Shown in pieces: positions 4,780 through 55,020 of a stretch of DNA of 64,000 nt (position 1 is the first letter of the stretch; each line of letters starts with the position of its first letter). A program made the position numbers and the translations under genes. The notes beneath the pieces were generated by a model, which was not told the origin of the DNA, searched no databases, and saw nothing but the letters and a program-made list of their open reading frames with translations. The stretch lies in the IMG/VR virus record IMGVR_UViG_3300021399_003599; one strand, 5' to 3'. The stretch comes from a virus (taxonomy: Duplodnaviria > Caudoviricetes).

Positions 4780-4962
4780 TTAGCTATTATTTCCACCAAT
4801 TTGACAAAGAGTTAATTCTTCATTTACAGTCTTAGCCATATACCATTGCATTTCATCTGTAGCTACGGCCAAATCTCCTTCTGACATTTCAGATAAATTT
4901 TTTAATAAATTTTCTTTAGTTCCTTGGTAGAAATTAATAAAATTTCCTTCTATTACTGACAT
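4780..4962 (-). CDS. Small hypothetical protein (fibre N-terminal-like domain)
   Basis: 60 aa with AAAGGAG RBS; NFYQG...GDLAVATD pattern shares NFYQG with 14041..14349. Confidence 0.6.
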   Translation of the reverse strand: MSVIEGNFINFYQGTKENLLKNLSEMSEGDLAVATDEMQWYMAKTVNEELTLCQIGGNNS

Positions 4963-4977
4963 AAGATCTCCTTTATG

Positions 4978-5014
4978 AAAAAAGGGATAATAGAATATAT
5001 ATTCTATTATCCCT
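4978..5014 (-). terminator. Intrinsic terminator (32-bp perfect palindrome)
   Basis: AGGGATAATAGAATAT/ATATTCTATTATCCCT at 4983-5014 with a U-tract on the - strand, directly after 5019..5285. Confidence 0.8.
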
Positions 5015-5018
5015 CGTT

Positions 5019-5285
5019 TTATTTATTAAGTTGTTCGGTTGAAATATCAATAACAAAATCTAAAATTGTTTGTTTTGATACGTCTTGTTCTTTTGCGCGA
5101 GCTGCTTTTAATACATCTAATAACATAGCTCCATGATGTTTTTCTTGATCAGCCATTGTCATAAACATTTTAGAGGCTTCAGGAAGACTTTTTTCCCATT
5201 TTTTAGCGCATTTTTGATACTGTTCTGCACCCTCTGATTCTTCCATAATCATTCCAACGAAGCCTTTAATATCTTCAATATTCAT
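5019..5285 (-). CDS. Half-ferritin/rubrerythrin-like helical protein
   Basis: 88 aa, helical; EE-x2-GA-x2-Y and DQEKHH (ExxH) resemble di-iron ligand motifs. Confidence 0.6.
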   Translation of the reverse strand: MNIEDIKGFVGMIMEESEGAEQYQKCAKKWEKSLPEASKMFMTMADQEKHHGAMLLDVLKAARAKEQDVSKQTILDFVIDISTEQLNK

Positions 5286-5296
5286 ACAAAAGCTCC

Positions 5297-5710
5297 TTAT
5301 TGACGTTCAGTGACAGTTGCGGCGTTATTTAAAACGACCTCTCCGCCAGTAAGTCTAAATTCTAATGTAGAAGATTCAGTATTACAACGACAACCTTGAA
5401 GTCTAATCATTGCGGGAAAGCTTAAATTAATAGTTGTATCTGCCGCAGCAACCGTTTCACTAGCAAGAGCTCCTGGCACGGCTACTCCATCTTGATATAG
5501 TTGGACAGTAATAGTACTTGCGGCGCTTGGTGTTAAGGTAAAAGAACCATTAAGGTCATAATACCCAGCTCCTTGTATTAAAATACCAAAACCATCTGTC
5601 CTGATATTAGATCCAAAACGTCTAACAGTCATGCCAACAGGAATACTAGCTCCATCTTGTAATGTTGGACTATTAGTATTAATACAATATAATGCAGATT
5701 TACAAGACAT
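5297..5710 (-). CDS. Beta-sandwich protein, BclA C-terminal/C1q-TNF-like
   Basis: 137 aa; GILIQGAGYYDLNGSFT and ITVQLYQDGVAVPGA patterns resemble BclA-CTD/C1q-like jelly rolls; Cys motifs MSCKS and GCRC. Confidence 0.5.
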   Translation of the reverse strand: MSCKSALYCINTNSPTLQDGASIPVGMTVRRFGSNIRTDGFGILIQGAGYYDLNGSFTLTPSAASTITVQLYQDGVAVPGALASETVAAADTTINLSFPAMIRLQGCRCNTESSTLEFRLTGGEVVLNNAATVTERQ

Positions 5711-5743
5711 AATTATATACCCCCAGTCAAATATGACTTATTT

Positions 5744-6448
5744 TTAAATATTGTTATATCCACAACCATTGTTACCACAGAAAGGAGAGGGGCCAGCATT
5801 GTAAGTGTAACCATTAGGATATCTTACTACATTTGATGTTGCTTCTCGAAGTTCAAGTTGACCAACGCGATCGCGCAGATTGGTAATTTCATTCTGATCC
5901 ATCTTACGTTCAAGCCTGTTACCAAGACCCTCAATAGCGTTCTGGGTTGCCATAGCACTCATTGCGGCATCATAACGATTCTGCGCGATGCCCGCGTTAA
6001 TGTTTGCGGCAATTTCTTGCAGTAGCATCTTAGTACTGCAGCAGCATTCATTCTGATTAGCAATTGATTGCTGGATAGCAGAATTAACACCTAGAACGTC
6101 ACGATCAAGTTCCGCATACTTATCCCCAATATACTGAACAGTATCATGGAAAGTTTGATTAGTTGCGGCAACCGCTTGAGCCGTACCAGAATTAACGGCC
6201 GAAAGGATTTCACGCTGATTAGCCATGGAATTTTGATTGTCAAATCCACGCTGAACCTCAGCGGAAGTAGCTAAATTTTCATAACCGATAGCATTAGCAA
6301 AACCATTATTGCCCCAGGCACCAAAGCCGCCATTTGCAAGGATGAGAAGAGCAAAAATCCACATAAATGAATTACTAGCCCAGTCACCACCATGACGATC
6401 AGTAAGTAAAGCAACATCAGAAGCTGACATACCATTGGAAGTATCCAT
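5744..6448 (-). CDS. Uncharacterised protein: hydrophobic Gly/aromatic segment, long coiled coil, CCC motif
   Basis: FMWIFALLILANGGFGAWGNNGF, heptad-rich Q/N/A region, NECCCST, C-terminal PFCGNNGCG; RBS GAAAGGCGG. Confidence 0.8.
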   Translation of the reverse strand: MDTSNGMSASDVALLTDRHGGDWASNSFMWIFALLILANGGFGAWGNNGFANAIGYENLATSAEVQRGFDNQNSMANQREILSAVNSGTAQAVAATNQTFHDTVQYIGDKYAELDRDVLGVNSAIQQSIANQNECCCSTKMLLQEIAANINAGIAQNRYDAAMSAMATQNAIEGLGNRLERKMDQNEITNLRDRVGQLELREATSNVVRYPNGYTYNAGPSPFCGNNGCGYNNI

Positions 6449-6453
6449 ATCCG

Positions 6454-6531
6454 GACCCGCCTTTCAGATAAGGAGATTCCTTTACAAGAATCTCAATTTA
6501 ACTTAATCCTTATATATCTGAAAGATAGGTC
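6454..6531 (-). promoter_or_regulatory. RBS-sequestering hairpin overlapping a candidate late promoter
   Basis: On the - strand GACCTATCTTTCAGATA (6531-6515) pairs with TATCTGAAAGGCGGGTC (6470-6454), which contains the RBS; inner GAGATTC/GAATCTC stem. Confidence 0.7.
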
Positions 6532-6558
6532 AATCAAATTATTTAATTATGTCCAATT

Positions 6559-6831
6559 TTATCTTAGCTGGCTAAGAATCTGATTTGGATCAACTCCCTT
6601 AGCTTTTGCAGCTGCATAGAATAAATCCTTATAACTCTGTCCTGCTTGCGCAGCTTGATTAACCATTGCAGCAACATTGGGATTTGATTGAAGCATGTTC
6701 ATCACCATTTGTTGCGGGTTGCCGCTATTCATTACTAAATTAAGAGCTTGCGCTATTGGATTGTTGCTGCCTGTTGGAGTTGGAGTTGGAGTTATTCTTT
6801 CCTGCATAGCTTGAAGAATAGGATTTACCAT
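6559..6831 (-). CDS. Small Q/N/M-rich helical protein (STI1/DP-repeat-like)
   Basis: 90 aa with repeated NP motifs (NPQQMVMNMLQSNPNVAAMV); GAGGAG RBS; overlaps the upstream gene by 92 bp. Confidence 0.7.
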   Translation of the reverse strand: MVNPILQAMQERITPTPTPTGSNNPIAQALNLVMNSGNPQQMVMNMLQSNPNVAAMVNQAAQAGQSYKDLFYAAAKAKGVDPNQILSQLR

Positions 6832-7213
6832 TATTAATCTTCTCCTCTATCTGTCGATACTGATCTTGTAACTGATTATATTGTTGTTCTATAGTTGCAA
6901 GACGATTTTCTAAAATATGATATTGATTTTGTTGTTGAGCTTGTTCAACTTCTTCTGCTGGTGTAATATAAAATTTATTTAGAGTAGGAAAACCACCGTC
7001 ATCAGTTGTTTTTAACCATACAACAGAATCCGTTTTATCTAGTAAAAGAATAGAAGACCCAGGTGGAATACTATAAGCTTGCGCGCCATCTTTTCCATAC
7101 ACTTCAGCTATATGAACTGCTAATTGTGGAACTTGATTTTGTGTCCAAGTTGGATTAGGCATATTTGGATTATTATAATTCCAATTTTGATTTGGATATC
7201 CTCCGTATGGCAT
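6740..7213 (-). CDS. Uncharacterised protein (low-complexity N-terminus, beta domain, coiled coil)
   Basis: 157 aa; AAGGAG RBS; core V-x-G-x2-GA-x-AY-x-IPPGSSILLLD...LKTTD. Confidence 0.75.
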   Translation of the reverse strand: MPYGGYPNQNWNYNNPNMPNPTWTQNQVPQLAVHIAEVYGKDGAQAYSIPPGSSILLLDKTDSVVWLKTTDDGGFPTLNKFYITPAEEVEQAQQQNQYHILENRLATIEQQYNQLQDQYRQIEEKINNGKSYSSSYAGKNNSNSNSNRQQQSNSASS

Positions 7214-7228
7214 AACTCCTTCTTTCTC

Positions 7229-8398
7229 TTATGAATTTAATAAAGCTAATAATGCTTGTAATTGAGTTTCATTAATTGTGGTCGAGCCGATGGTGATGCC
7301 GCCCGTGGAACTGACGGTGACGCCACCCGCCAGCCACTCGTTGCCGTTCCAGTCCAGCGTCCTGGCGTTGCTGCGCTTGCTATAGTCGCCGTTGCCGATG
7401 ATCTCGGCATACTTGTTGGCGGTGTCCTCGATGTTGTATCTACCGCCCGCGTGTTGATTCTGACTCGCCGCAATGGTGCCGTAACCCTCGGCGTGAGATT
7501 TTTGGCCGCTCGCGGTCGTGTTGTTACCCTCAGCGTGAGAGCACGCGCCACTTGCTGTCGTGCCGTTACCTTCGGCGTGAGAGTAATCGTTGCTTGCGGT
7601 CGTAGATTGTCCCTCAGCGTGAGAGGATTCGCTGCTGGCAATGGTGCTGCTACCTTCGGCATGGGAATCTGTGCCGCTCGCGGTCGTGTCGTAACCCTCG
7701 GCGTGAGATTTTTGGCCGCTCGCGGTAGTTCCTTTACCTTCGGCGTGAGACCACATGTCGCTTGCCACGTTTTCGGTGCTGTTGAACACGTCCGAGTTTT
7801 TCCCCGTGCCATTTGTAACTAGATGACCTTCAAAATACGCTGAATATGGGCCAATCTTTGAAAATGATGCCGCTCCGCTGATCTTGATCGTGAGCGGTCG
7901 CGATGTGTAGCCCTCTTTTGCAAAGAGTCCGGTGTCTTTCATGTATAGGAACGGCTCACCGGTATCCACGGATGGTGACCAGAATATAAATGCCGCTAGA
8001 TTCCCGATATACAGATTGCCGTTGCTTTCCTTGCACTCGACACTGTATGTCTCGCCGTCAAACTCGACCGTGTAAGTCATCCCCAATTCGATGTCTATGC
8101 TGCCAATGTCCGCGCCACCTGGATTACCGTGAGACATGTCTGGCGCAGCTATGGTCACTTCGCCCTCGTATAGCGTGTCATATCCAGTGATGCCGAACGG
8201 TCTGTTGGCGATGAATCCGCTCTCGCCATCGACGGCGTTCCAGTCGGCGCCGCCATTTGAACTTATTTGTTCAACAATATTAGAATCAAGCTTTTCTAAA
8301 GTAACAGCACCGTCTTGAATTTGATCTGTGCCAACACTTGTTATAGAAGATCCGCTGCCAGCATTTTTTCTAGCAAGAGCAATGTCAATAATATCCAT
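7229..8398 (-). CDS. Fibre/adhesin-like protein with 14-aa SHAEG (YadA head-like) repeats
   Basis: Likely start is ATG 8398 (MDIIDIALARK) with GGTGA SD and TAATG coupling; about seven SHAEGxxTxASG repeats; C-terminal RSNARTLDWNGNEWLAG. Confidence 0.75.
   Translation of the reverse strand: MDIIDIALARKNAGSGSSITSVGTDQIQDGAVTLEKLDSNIVEQISSNGGADWNAVDGESGFIANRPFGITGYDTLYEGEVTIAAPDMSHGNPGGADIGSIDIELGMTYTVEFDGETYSVECKESNGNLYIGNLAAFIFWSPSVDTGEPFLYMKDTGLFAKEGYTSRPLTIKISGAASFSKIGPYSAYFEGHLVTNGTGKNSDVFNSTENVASDMWSHAEGKGTTASGQKSHAEGYDTTASGTDSHAEGSSTIASSESSHAEGQSTTASNDYSHAEGNGTTASGACSHAEGNNTTASGQKSHAEGYGTIAASQNQHAGGRYNIEDTANKYAEIIGNGDYSKRSNARTLDWNGNEWLAGGVTVSSTGGITIGSTTINETQLQALLALLNS
7481..7750. repeat. 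42-bp period coding tandem repeats
   Basis: GTAACCCTCGGCGTGAGATTTTTGGCCGCTCGCGGT is exact at 7481-7516 and 7691-7726 (5 x 42 bp apart), with degenerate copies between. Confidence 0.9.
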
Positions 8399-8577
8399 TA
8401 TAACATCACCCACTTTTTACTAGAATTTAATATATATACATTTCCATCCGATAATACCAAACAATTTGTTCCCATAGGAGGATTAGTTTCCAAGAGTGCA
8501 GTTAAGTCTTCAACGTTATCAGCAATATAACTTATTTTACCATCAGGGCCATTGTTTTTTAAAACAGAATAACTCAT
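8398..8577 (-). CDS. 59-aa stand-alone copy of the shared N-terminal domain (absent from the ORF track)
   Basis: Translates as MSYSVLKNNGPDGKISYIADNVEDLTALLETNPPMGTNCLVLSDGNVYILNSSKKWVML; TAATG overlaps at both ends; clearly similar to the N-terminus of 8792..9802. Confidence 0.85.
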   Translation of the reverse strand: MSYSVLKNNGPDGKISYIADNVEDLTALLETNPPMGTNCLVLSDGNVYILNSSKKWVML

Positions 8578-8780
8578 TACAAATCACTCTCGTCTTTGTC
8601 TTGATTGTCATAAATCTGTTCAATCAGTTGCTCAAGTTCTGCTACTTGTTCATCTGTTAACACTCCTGCTTCTAACTGTTCATACATTCTCATAGTCCAA
8701 TATTCAACTTCTTGACCTTTAAGAATAGCAGACCGAATAGTTTTAAATACAATTCGTCTGCGGGCTTCGCTAACAATCAT
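8577..8780 (-). CDS. Small XkdX-like fibre-associated protein
   Basis: 67 aa; AGVLTDEQVAEL motif; follows a fibre-like gene; AGGAGG RBS. Confidence 0.55.
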   Translation of the reverse strand: MIVSEARRRIVFKTIRSAILKGQEVEYWTMRMYEQLEAGVLTDEQVAELEQLIEQIYDNQDKDESDL

Positions 8781-8791
8781 TTTAATCCTCC

Positions 8792-9802
8792 TTATGATTT
8801 ACTTACAATATCAGCTATTGCTTCCTCAAGATTATTAATAGCAAGATTAATATCTCGATAATAAGAAATAACTATATTAGCATCAATACTTGTATTATTT
8901 TCATCAGTTGCGACAATTTGTACCGTAGACGGATTTTCTGAAAACATTGGCATAGTAATACTAGGAATCACAAACGTTTCCACTGGTTTCCGCATTACAA
9001 CAGTTGCCCCAACTAATGCATCAAATGTTGCTTGTGTAGCACTAGACCCCGCATAAGCATAAAATCCAGTTTGTGTGGTGCCAACATATAGTCCATTTTT
9101 ATCAAACGCGCACTTAGAACAATAACCTACAATAGAATCTGTTGTATTTGTTTCTGCTCGCATAGCTTCCGCACTATCCCACAAAGGAATAGGTGAATCA
9201 AAAGTTAATAATGCAGATTTTTGTTTTCCATTTGTAACCATCGTTCCTACGCTAGTAATTGTACGCTTTGCCGCGCGTTCATAAAGTATACCTGAACCAT
9301 TTTCATCTATTATTAATTCATCACGTTTTCCATTTGGAACACTTTGTAATAAATGAACAACACCTTTATTATCTATTAATGTTAAAGGAACAGAAATAGA
9401 ATTATTAATATCTGCACCACTTATTTCTAAACTTATATTTGCGATACTCTTAATTGCTATTGGGTTACTTGCAGATGGAGTCCCAGTTTGGCTACAGCGA
9501 CCATAAATAGTTAATCCTGCTAAACGGGTTCCCGCAACCACATCATCTAATGTAATATCAATACCACTTTCAGTTCCTTTAAAATTATTGTTAGAGTATG
9601 AAGGAGAAGATCCTCCACCACCACCACTGTTTCCAAGAAGAGGAATCCATTGTTTATTTGAATTAATAATATACACTTCACCATTTGATAATACTAAGCA
9701 GGAAGCTCCCATTGGAGGATTCGTTTGCAAGATTAAAGGCAGATCATTAGGAGTGTCCGCAACATAAGTAGGTTTTTCATTATTACTTAAAATAGAATAC
9801 AT
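8792..9802 (-). CDS. Fibre-like protein with shared N-terminal domain
   Basis: N-terminal TYVADTPNDL...PPMGASCLVLSNGEVYIINSNKQW, a Gly linker, IYGRCSQTGTPSASNPIAIKS, and C-terminal RDINLAINNLEEAI coiled coil. Confidence 0.7.
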   Translation of the reverse strand: MYSILSNNEKPTYVADTPNDLPLILQTNPPMGASCLVLSNGEVYIINSNKQWIPLLGNSGGGGGSSPSYSNNNFKGTESGIDITLDDVVAGTRLAGLTIYGRCSQTGTPSASNPIAIKSIANISLEISGADINNSISVPLTLIDNKGVVHLLQSVPNGKRDELIIDENGSGILYERAAKRTITSVGTMVTNGKQKSALLTFDSPIPLWDSAEAMRAETNTTDSIVGYCSKCAFDKNGLYVGTTQTGFYAYAGSSATQATFDALVGATVVMRKPVETFVIPSITMPMFSENPSTVQIVATDENNTSIDANIVISYYRDINLAINNLEEAIADIVSKS

Positions 9803-9827
9803 TATGTGCTCTCCTTTTGTTTATTTA

Positions 9828-10445
9828 TTAAGATACATGGCCTGGGTTAAAGGTTTGGGGAGCATACCCTGGAATTCTTATAATCATTCCAAATGGTGTT
9901 TGCGCATTGATTTGATCGATTATTTTCTGACCAAAAGATAATCCTTCAGGAGAGTCACCGGGAATAAGACTACCAGCCAAGGGCACAATTGAATGCTCAG
10001 GATCAGAAAATGCTTGAACAGGCATATCATCAAAGCCACCAATAGTAATTCCTTGATGTCTAAGTACTCCTCTTTCTGGCTCTGCATCTATTCCTCCTAA
10101 TGGCTCAATTAATTGCCATTGACCAGGAATGATTACAACAAGCTCTTGAGGATTTTGTTGATATTTTTCAGTAAAAACATCCGTAGCTTTAAAATCTTTA
10201 AGATTAGCTACTTTTTGATCTTTAGAAAGAACTCCAAATTGAGGACCTTTATCTATTATATAACTATTAGGAGACCAAAGATAAAGCCCTCTAGGACTAA
10301 CGTTACCATCATCAATATTTAAATGAATACACTTGGTTCCTATTGGGAGGTCAGTTTTTATACAAATACCAAGCATATCATCCACTGTATCTGCAACATA
10401 AGTATTAGCACCCATTGAATTTTTATTTAATATATTATATGCCAT
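9828..10445 (-). CDS. Hypothetical protein with shared N-terminal domain
   Basis: MAYNILNKN...TYVADTVDD...LPIGTKC is paralogous to neighbouring genes. Confidence 0.75.
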   Translation of the reverse strand: MAYNILNKNSMGANTYVADTVDDMLGICIKTDLPIGTKCIHLNIDDGNVSPRGLYLWSPNSYIIDKGPQFGVLSKDQKVANLKDFKATDVFTEKYQQNPQELVVIIPGQWQLIEPLGGIDAEPERGVLRHQGITIGGFDDMPVQAFSDPEHSIVPLAGSLIPGDSPEGLSFGQKIIDQINAQTPFGMIIRIPGYAPQTFNPGHVS

Positions 10446-10464
10446 TTATATTCGCCTCCCCTTT

Positions 10465-11112
10465 CTAAAGCATCTGTTCATGACTAAAAACAAATACTAT
10501 TTGATCAGAAGCATATCCTTTAGATTGAAGAATTGGAACCCCTTCTGTCAAAAAATCAGAAGTAGAAATTTGTTTTACATTTCCAATATCTGCTATAGAT
10601 ACACTTTTTGCTAAATCTTCGCATGTAATAATTTCTAAGAAAGAAGTATTATCATTTACGTCTTCATATTTAGTTTTACCTATGTTTGCCCAATAAGAAC
10701 TAAAGAGTGATGTTGTTGCATCTATTTTTGGGATACCTATTAAGCCAAAATAACTAGAGCCACTACTGCCTTGACGATATAAAGCATCAGGATCATCCGA
10801 CATGAAGGAATCAGGTATTGAATCCAAAGTATATGTATCAGTAATCCATGCTCCTTGTCCTAAGCCTGCTATATCGGACCATATTCCACCTAACGTCCAT
10901 TCAAATTGATCTAAAGGAGCTAGTTCTGCTGTTGGATTAACTTCAAAAACCTTTTGCTTTGTAAACATATAAGTACTATATGGATTCATAACAATGGCTT
11001 TAGTACCCACAGGTAGCTTAGAATCCTTGCCTAACTCAGTTAAGTCATTTGTCGACTCACAAAGATAAGTTGGTATATTAGTTGATGTACGTTTAATTAT
11101 TTTATATGCCAT
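10465..11112 (-). CDS. Hypothetical protein with shared N-terminal domain
   Basis: MAYKIIKR...TYLCESTNDL...LPVGTKAIV is paralogous to neighbouring genes. Confidence 0.75.
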   Translation of the reverse strand: MAYKIIKRTSTNIPTYLCESTNDLTELGKDSKLPVGTKAIVMNPYSTYMFTKQKVFEVNPTAELAPLDQFEWTLGGIWSDIAGLGQGAWITDTYTLDSIPDSFMSDDPDALYRQGSSGSSYFGLIGIPKIDATTSLFSSYWANIGKTKYEDVNDNTSFLEIITCEDLAKSVSIADIGNVKQISTSDFLTEGVPILQSKGYASDQIVFVFSHEQML

Positions 11113-11674: not shown

Positions 11675-11696
11675 CTATTACTTTGTTATGTCCTAT

Positions 11697-53800: not shown

Positions 53801-54988
53801 AATAATACTTATTCATTAGGTAATACTTCACATTACTGGGCAAATGCATATATTACAAATGTACATATAGGTACACAAGATAGCTATGGTAGCTCAACAA
53901 CTCCAATATATTGGAATTCAGGAGTACCAACCGCATCAACCGCTACTGTTGGAGCTTTATACAATCCAATCTACTTAAATGGAGGAACATTAACACCATC
54001 TAATGGTTACACAATTGAATATATAGTAGGCACGCAAACTGAAGCTACTGGCACTTGGACAGGAATAACACAAGATTCTGAGCTTTATATTGGAAAAATG
54101 ATTGCATATAAATTACCAAAAGCTGGTAGTGGTAACGCTACTTTAACATTAACAATGGCAGATAATTCTACAACTGCAGCAATACCAGTTTATGCAGGCA
54201 CAGTCCGATTAACTACTCATTATGGAGCAGAGAGTGTTCTAATCATGACTTATGATGGAACAGCTTGGCGTACTAACCCATATTATAATACTAACACCAA
54301 TACTTTACTACGTGTTTATTCAAGTGCTACAAACCTTGATGTTCCATTAATTGGACAAAGCTCTGCTAATAGCACAACAGCTGCTTGGGCAAATTATACA
54401 GGAACATATAAAGATTGGTATGGAGCTATTCCTAATGATAATAGTTTACGACCAAAGATGAATTTGTCAACAGGTGTTTTAACGGTTCCAGGAGGAATCG
54501 TCGGTAACGCTAGTACTGCAACAGCATTTAATTCATCTCGAACAATTACTTTAACAGGGGACATTGGCGGTTCAAATTCAGCAACAGGAGCTTCTGGATG
54601 GAGTATTGCAACAACTCTTGCTAATTCAGGTGTTACAGCTGGCACATATGGCCTGACTGCTAATGCCACACCTGGGTATGGAGCCACTTTTAATGTTCCT
54701 GAAATTATAGTAGATGCAAAAGGTAGAGTAACTAGTGCTGCAACTCATACTGTAAAAATTCCTGCATCTGATAATACAGACACTAAAAACACTGCAGGAA
54801 GTACTAATAGCGATTCTAAGCTATTCTTAATTGGCGCGGGTTCTCAAGCAGCTAATCCACAAACATATTCAGATAGTGATGTTTATACCACAAATGGAAC
54901 ATTGAGAGCTTTAAAATATAAAGTTGCAAATAATGTTATTTTAGAATACGATGAATCAGCTGAATGTTTAAACTTCGTGTTTGACTAG
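41816..54988 (+). CDS. Giant modular tail fibre/host-specificity protein (4390 aa)
   Basis: Coiled-coil segments, collagen-like Gly-X-Y tract, five IGG(R/K)NL...KLE(K/R)G..AT.W.PAPED carbohydrate-binding-like modules, several duplicated modules, T/G/S-rich beta-repeat C-terminal half. Confidence 0.85.
43379..43615 (+). repeat. Collagen-like Gly-X-Y repeat tract
   Basis: [25 protein letters not shown]...GDKGDRG with a 45-bp internal duplication; locally GC-rich. Confidence 0.95.
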
Positions 54989-55000
54989 GACAAAATTTTA

Positions 55001-55020
55001 TTATACAATTAATTGTATAA
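55001..55020. promoter_or_regulatory. 20-bp perfect palindrome (operator-like)
   Basis: TTATACAATTAATTGTATAA in the intergenic region. Confidence 0.5.

Follow-up and report, generated by a model that had tools for sequence, protein, structure and literature searches.

An optional, mobile phage gene module with a predicted trimeric coiled-coil rod and an exchangeable C1q/TNF-like knob

Several products of the phage gene module described here resemble proteins of known systems. BclA-type proteins, defined by a collagen stalk and an exosporium leader, place a trimeric knob on a thin stalk (PMC12357932), a design like that proposed for two of the module's products taken together; class I fusion proteins (retroviral TM, coronavirus S2, influenza HA2) have a hydrophobic N-terminal Gly/aromatic segment and a cysteine-bearing trimeric coil, as does one product; and the encapsulated ferritins EncFtn/EncB (PF22277, NF058679, TIGR04535) and rubrerythrin half-domains are, like another product, two-helix half bundles with E..Y/ExxH motifs in ferritin spacing. 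The module was analysed in a 64,000-nucleotide window (the whole stretch of DNA studied) of the tailed-virus record IMGVR_UViG_3300021399_003599, where five co-oriented genes, A to E, occupy positions 5019-7213 of the minus strand, with the coordinates and lengths that an initial annotation had given. As a gene system it has no characterised counterpart, and the folds of two of its parts, D and E, are already known; we found no published study of it in the literature searched. PHROG 16490, 21718 and 22984 are its C, A and B, and PHROG 9288, 9157, 8329 and 7239 form a four-gene enterobacterial version, all without a function label. By computation, the module comprises an A-B-C core, a predicted trimeric rod, a swappable knob and a putative metal-binding half bundle, and it spreads independently of host.

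Gene C (5744-6448, minus strand; 234 aa; PHROG 16490, E 6e-9) is the invariant member. Its product has an acidic N-terminus, a Gly/aromatic hydrophobic segment at residues 28-50, a coil at residues 63-194 with a CCC motif at 135-137, a conserved RYP..Y.AG..PF motif and a Cys-Gly tail. A trimer model of C scored 0.65, whereas the best of three controls scored 0.00; in calibration, 20 of 30 solved homo-pairs and one of 23 single chains attained the mark for this score, and this calibration is only rough for the job run with C. The trimer runs agreed in at least 57% of contacts, with a predicted local distance difference test (pLDDT) value of at least 68, and all of the best contacts were in register (residue i to ~i) and unbroken from 63 to 194. 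C135 and C136 lie within the modelled trimer interface. C is accordingly modelled as a parallel trimeric rod of ~20 nm (132 residues x 1.5 Å) with the CCC motif in its core, and the trimeric coiled coil proposed in the initial annotation is supported. The annotation had also described two separate heptad regions, of which the coil itself stands; it is a single continuous coil, much of it hendecad, and the trimer contacts of its first half follow an 11-residue beat. Across C members the spacing between CCC and RYP is 45, 52, 56, 63, 67, 74, 78, 85 or 92 residues, shifting only by combinations of 7 and 11, as expected for a length-tolerant coil.

The N-terminal segment of C is hydrophobic in 61% of 150 members, whereas a C-terminal segment is so in <1%. 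It has net acidic flanks and is not a signal peptide, and we infer that C may insert into a membrane through it. Residues 7-21 carry an S-x-x-D-x-A pattern before a Gly pair, which is like a double-glycine leader and equally like an ordinary helix cap; the module encodes no transporter matching such a leader. PDB sequence searches with C, A, B and the ferritin-like protein F of related loci gave no real match. NCBIfam gave no match above cut-off, and PADLOC models matched none of the five module proteins.

Gene D (5297-5710, minus strand; 137 aa) is optional and replaceable; its product is a C1q/TNF jelly roll in a chain of its own, of the type found at the C-terminus of BclA, with cysteines at its N-terminus and in loop sequence. 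The predicted fold (pLDDT 93) is a ten-stranded jelly roll as in the C1q/TNF superfamily and, in agreement with the C1q/BclA-like head suggested before, matches the BclA C-terminal domain (CTD) at Z 18.1 (root-mean-square deviation, rmsd, 2.2; 127 of 137 residues aligned), F-BclA-CTD at Z 17.6 and ExsFA at Z 14.9; TNF/C1q heads and phage fibre knobs are also matched, Z being 13 for PRD1 P5 and for the fibre knobs of cyanophages. D thus has the jelly roll of the BclA-CTD, F-BclA-CTD and ExsFA/BxpB group (PF18573; PDB 1WCK, 3TWI, 9H38, 7R1M), and its score against Pfam PF18573 is 23.5, below the cut-off of 38. Unlike BclA, D is a separate, optional polypeptide that consists of the knob only, without a collagen GXY stalk or exosporium leader, and its stalk would be an alpha-helical coil from another gene. 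A D filament, prompted by the 21 chains of 9H38, was dropped, as that entry is a crystal of the F-BclA tip domain.

Among 90 distinct loci, the BclA-type D is present in 38, a beta protein that we call D2 in 36, and neither in 16. D2 has no known match, and any relationship to D is at most remote. The Cys-Gly tail of C is found at 66 of the 74 loci with a knob gene and at three of the 16 without, which suggests that C and D are coupled through the Cys tail. C-D or other long fusions were not found, a weak test. D almost never has a signal or membrane segment, and it occurs with non-spore-forming hosts only in metagenome-assembled genome bins. Homing-endonuclease-like or other insertions lie between C and D at several loci (among them L018 6736-7344 and L020 6714-7361).

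Gene E (5019-5285, minus strand; 88 aa) encodes a ferritin-like half of a four-helix bundle, as first proposed: it matches Pfam Rubrerythrin at 36.4 bits, above the cut-off, over half of the model, and the ligand residues E16, Y23, E48 and H51, the E..Y and ExxH motifs of a helix pair, are conserved. Sequence thus points to a metal-binding half bundle. Unlike the encapsulated ferritins, E scores far below the cut-offs of their models (26.8 against 90 for EncB, and 18.8 against 125), has no encapsulin-like gene among the recurrent neighbours of the module, and is replaceable; in other loci its position is taken by a full-length ferritin-like protein or by small helical or other helical proteins.

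The two remaining genes belong to the core. Gene A (6740-7213, minus strand; 157 aa; PHROG 21718, E 9e-13) has a prion-like, N/Q/P/Y low-complexity N-terminus, a small beta-alpha-beta core (beta-alpha-beta-beta-beta, residues 30-89) and then a helix (91-129). Fold searches with A returned only uncharacterised phage relatives and a weak match to collagen XV/XVIII trimerization domains, the best being that of collagen XVIII (Z 4.6, rmsd 3.1, 53 residues aligned). At 12 related loci (L027, L028, L030, L044, L047, L055, L057, L060, L063, L093, L095, L099), which probably represent one clade, A forms an in-frame fusion with a preceding NlpC/P60-like (ELLD) wall hydrolase domain that carries Cys and His motifs, and this fusion ties the module to the envelope. 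Some of these loci also encode a separate endolysin.

Gene B (6559-6831, minus strand; 90 aa) encodes a helical, M/Q/N-rich protein with four NP motifs. The two genes share 92 nt here (6740-6831), and in relatives the median overlap is ~68 nt; their relative frame is identical in 87 of 90 loci, a striking consistency even though long overlaps favour that frame anyway. As B has a ribosome-binding site of its own, frameshifting from A into B was not considered further. As to the proposed STI1-like character of B, three of 74 B members match STI1-HOP_DP (best E 0.006) and four of 74 an XPC-binding model (best E 7e-6); the B of the window matches neither, and a PDB search with B gave no match to an STI1 protein. 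A, B and E have no signal peptide and no membrane segment.

The distribution of the module was examined in 108 loci with C, of which 80 are viral and 28 come from genome bins; these loci share ancestry and are not independent. The order A-B-C holds in 93 of the 106 loci that have a C frame, so of the conserved A-to-E synteny that had been predicted only the core is fixed, and the precise combination of A to E is just one variant among many; related loci commonly have a second membrane coil (G) and, upstream, a helix-turn-helix gene. Relatives of C number 7343 among 8000 candidates scored and fall into 1119 clusters at 50% identity. Look-alike clusters of C in the Atlas are 100% viral, and no C relatives were found on plasmids. 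The whole gene string is present in cultured Clostridium perfringens phages, and C relatives occur in crAss-like phages and one cultured Bacteroides phage; named cultured carriers include Bas06 and HMD-PC1. In all, cultured phages of Bacteroides, Escherichia coli, Salmonella, Yersinia, Edwardsiella and Aeromonas carry C.

In enterobacterial phages, C relatives were found in 230 records, among them those of T1-like Tempevirinae, 9NA-like phages, eiAU and PY100, where they belong to a unit of four genes that lacks the knob; the profile match to C is 97.9% (E 5e-13). As these versions have no recognisable knob, the knob is not the core function. Profile comparison found no link between the enterobacterial partner genes and A, B or E. 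One partner gene has a PNS..D...Y..D..G-like pattern in common with A, and the gene after C (L114 4078-4401, L115 4068-4436, L110 5394-5759, L118 3485-3856) has a His/Asp-rich N-terminus, ExxEL and ELxDL motifs, and a helix pair that we take to be reminiscent of MazG-type metal-binding bundles. Two viruses whose records give a Methanomassiliicoccales host also carry C (E 2e-15 and 8e-13). There (L121 3141-5742, L122 3132-6246) the genes after C encode a helical protein, which lacks an annotation in vir215, and a membrane-anchored Listeria-Bacteroides-repeat protein; in vir215 a reverse transcriptase lies just upstream.

The module varies in position, lying after lysis genes, tail fibres, terminase or antirepressor, and it is present in JenK1, JenP2 and VogelGryff; of their relative 9g, the 41 kb examined (out of 57 kb) do not contain it. 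It is thus an optional, mobile, moron-like element. In T5-like Salmonella phages (L119 2791-3430) a broken C remnant, at varying stages of decay, directly follows the L-shaped fibre gene, and four further loci (L061, L077, L080, L089) have split cassette genes that may reflect stop-codon recoding. Public labels such as 'outer capsid protein/viral fiber', 'putative sugar-binding protein' and 'spike protein/glycoprotein' look like coil-driven guesses. Many carriers are virulent, so lysogenic conversion is not a general role and the module should act in the lytic cycle or after it; many hosts make no spores, so neither is coat building.

An RNA stem-loop before C (6454-6531, minus strand; z -3.0, stronger than 200 of 200 shuffles) pairs over the ribosome-binding site of C with its outer stem. 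The dedicated regulatory hairpin of the initial annotation is therefore real here, but not conserved, as the region after B is structured in 16% of 88 loci compared with 14% of coding controls. A hairpin after C is present in 59% of these loci; the hairpin before C is local control, and the one after C a family trait. The motif GGACA-N6-WRTWAT, a pattern defined post hoc and a lead only, occurs before C (6538-6554, minus strand), a Holliday-junction resolvase (11677-11693) and a tail-type gene (54988-55004), and the first two sites precede stems that bury a ribosome-binding site; it is possibly a candidate phage late promoter and hints at late timing. Codon bias is stronger in C than in A at 83 of 92 loci, than in D at 59 of 71, than in E or F at 42 of 50 and than in other genes at 76 of 89, and control codons show no shift for C. 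Judged from its codons, C is probably the most expressed gene of the module and its product the most abundant. Two gut metatranscriptome studies yielded short contigs of low depth over E, D and part of C; these are too thin, and could derive from DNA, so we do not use them as evidence.

By gene content, the window is part of a large AT-rich gut tailed phage, with anaerobic ribonucleotide reductase, DnaE, helicase, primase, gyrase and resolvase genes on its minus strand and tail-type genes on its plus strand. Genes A to E end a minus-strand run, directly after a YadA-repeat fibre gene. The unit is closed 3' of E by the intrinsic terminator that had been predicted (4982-5015, minus strand; z -4.9), and is open at its 5' end, where only 15 nt separate the fibre gene from the start of A. 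An identical C protein occurs in the same gene order on gut-metagenome contigs of up to 148 kb; on four other such contigs, independent gene calls reproduce A, C, D and E, and B is called in one. The motifs first read from the sequence are likewise all present, including the hydrophobic segment, CCC and Cys-Gly tail of C, SCK and CRC in D, the four ligand positions of E and the NP motifs of B. The fibre gene (7229-8413) has a third-position GC content (GC3) of 0.56, against ~0.2 elsewhere, and its length ranges between 358 and 603 aa on contigs that carry the identical C, i.e., it is a swapped segment. Four genes at 8398-11112 have a common N-terminal domain of roughly 55 aa, and a 60-aa open reading frame beyond the terminator (4780-4962) looks similar to this domain in topology; a comparison of the core of A with the domain gave no significant link.

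We tentatively propose that the module builds a late, cross-linked, membrane-tethered stalk and knob which, after lysis, remains attached to debris or virions and promotes adhesion, clustering or survival. C would enter the cytoplasmic membrane of the host through its N-terminal hydrophobic/Gly segment and form the modelled ~20 nm parallel trimeric rod, with a ring of cysteines at mid-rod. Since the partners of C lack signal peptides and membrane segments, the complex would be assembled on the cytoplasmic side, presumably at a late stage of infection, and A and B would serve as its scaffold or chaperone. The exchangeable knob, a putative trimer of D or D2, may then dock at the C-terminal motif of C and be locked through the Cys-Gly tail, and E could supply metal or oxidising chemistry for the cross-links. 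Once the cell lyses, the stalk and knob would stay on membrane remnants, or loosely on virions, so that progeny stick, cluster and survive; this benefit to the phage is a guess. Several points weigh against this proposal. The hydrophobic core of C is short (11 residues; KD19 1.54) and may not span a membrane, and the trimer is the sole oligomer of C that was modelled. The coupling of tail and knob comes down to ~6 independent pairs (same way 3.1, opposite 0.2; sign test p 0.25), and some enterobacterial versions have the Cys tail yet no recognisable knob. The late-promoter pattern was fitted post hoc, and the location on debris or virions, the least certain step, is a proposal only.

A doubtful, though not far-fetched, alternative is that C rods, with A, B and the metal-binding helper, remain at the inner membrane inside the cell and block superinfection, steady the membrane or tune lysis, the knob being a binding adaptor rather than an adhesin. 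The core is common to Gram-positive, Gram-negative and wall-less archaeal hosts, for which the cytoplasmic membrane is the sole common structure, and the module often lies beside holin and endolysin genes, encodes a second membrane coil in G and is fused to wall hydrolases; but carriers keep their own complete lysis genes, and this alternative leaves unexplained the C1q/TNF knob and the conserved cysteine clusters, features that fit an oxidised state outside the cell. It is unlikely that C and D form a stoichiometric virion appendage (whisker, spike or head fibre) with D as the knob that binds a receptor, on the pattern of PRD1 P5 or short tail fibres. A trimeric stalk with a TNF-like knob is a standard set of fibre parts, the fold of D matches the P5 and cyanophage knobs, and the module often adjoins tail-fibre genes; however, the same C accompanies unrelated sipho-, myo- and podoviral capsids at shifting genome positions, lacks a capsid- or baseplate-binding domain and has a membrane-type N-terminus. 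Also rather improbable is a counter-defence role or a metal/redox sink, in which the Cys-rich rod and its ferritin-like helper bind metal or a host signal or protein and so blunt defence. Its patchiness among close relatives (JenK1, JenP2 and VogelGryff versus the examined part of 9g; decay in T5-like phages), its high expression, the Cys3 site on the three-fold axis and the ferritin-like E and F would suit this role; the candidate late timing and multi-part structural anatomy would not, and nothing in PADLOC or among known anti-defence proteins was matched.

An exosporium or spore-coat modifier acting on the host, raised in the initial annotation, is very unlikely and is refuted as a general role. 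It would draw on the closest solved folds of D (BclA-CTD, F-BclA-CTD and ExsFA) and on cysteine clusters and a ferritin-like partner that echo coat chemistry, but relatives occur in phages of Bacteroides, of E. coli, Salmonella, Yersinia, Edwardsiella and Aeromonas, and of archaea, carriers are often virulent, and D lacks the collagen stalk and leader. The annotation had also compared the layout of C with class I viral fusion subunits, and a fusion-like spike is in our view extremely unlikely. C does have a trimeric central coil after a hydrophobic N-terminal peptide, so that its Gly/aromatic segment sits on the coil as in an extended pre-hairpin, and its crAss homologs carry RefSeq labels of 'spike protein/glycoprotein', which are probably misleading, coil-to-coil matches. 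A fold-back of the second heptad repeat (HR2) onto the first (HR1) to form a six-helix bundle was rejected, as the contacts are continuous and in register in the one state predicted. Among 150 C members, a C-terminal transmembrane anchor was found in one (the maximum KD19 there is -0.39 for the C of the window), a CX6CC-type loop in three and a cleavage-type (priming) motif in one; the best PDB sequence match of C is an HR1 mimic (E 0.08), a generic coil match. With no hairpin, anchor, loop or processing site the class I reading fails, and, in contrast to class I fusion proteins, C is carried by non-enveloped tailed viruses.

The module is very common, with carriers among the viruses of one archaeal order and of three bacterial phyla, and a function suited to hosts this diverse would be of general importance in phage biology. 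Direct tests are feasible, since carriers include both cultured C. perfringens phages and, from the BASEL collection, the E. coli K-12 phage Bas06 and its kin. We also considered, as a quite improbable reading, that its products form a cross-linked matrix or coat around progeny virions or lysis vesicles, made of C rods, a low-complexity scaffold of A and B and D knobs, with oxidation by E. We know of no inclusion or occlusion body in tailed phages. In poxviruses (A-type inclusion, A26 and A27 proteins) and in baculovirus occlusion bodies, optional, abundant, late coiled-coil and cysteine-linked proteins tether or embed virions for survival outside the host. The likeness of the module to A26/A27 and to baculovirus bodies is an analogy only, with no kinship shown in sequence or fold. 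If a matrix is indeed formed, it would be a phage counterpart of spore crusts and of poxvirus and baculovirus inclusion bodies, protecting particles between animal hosts.

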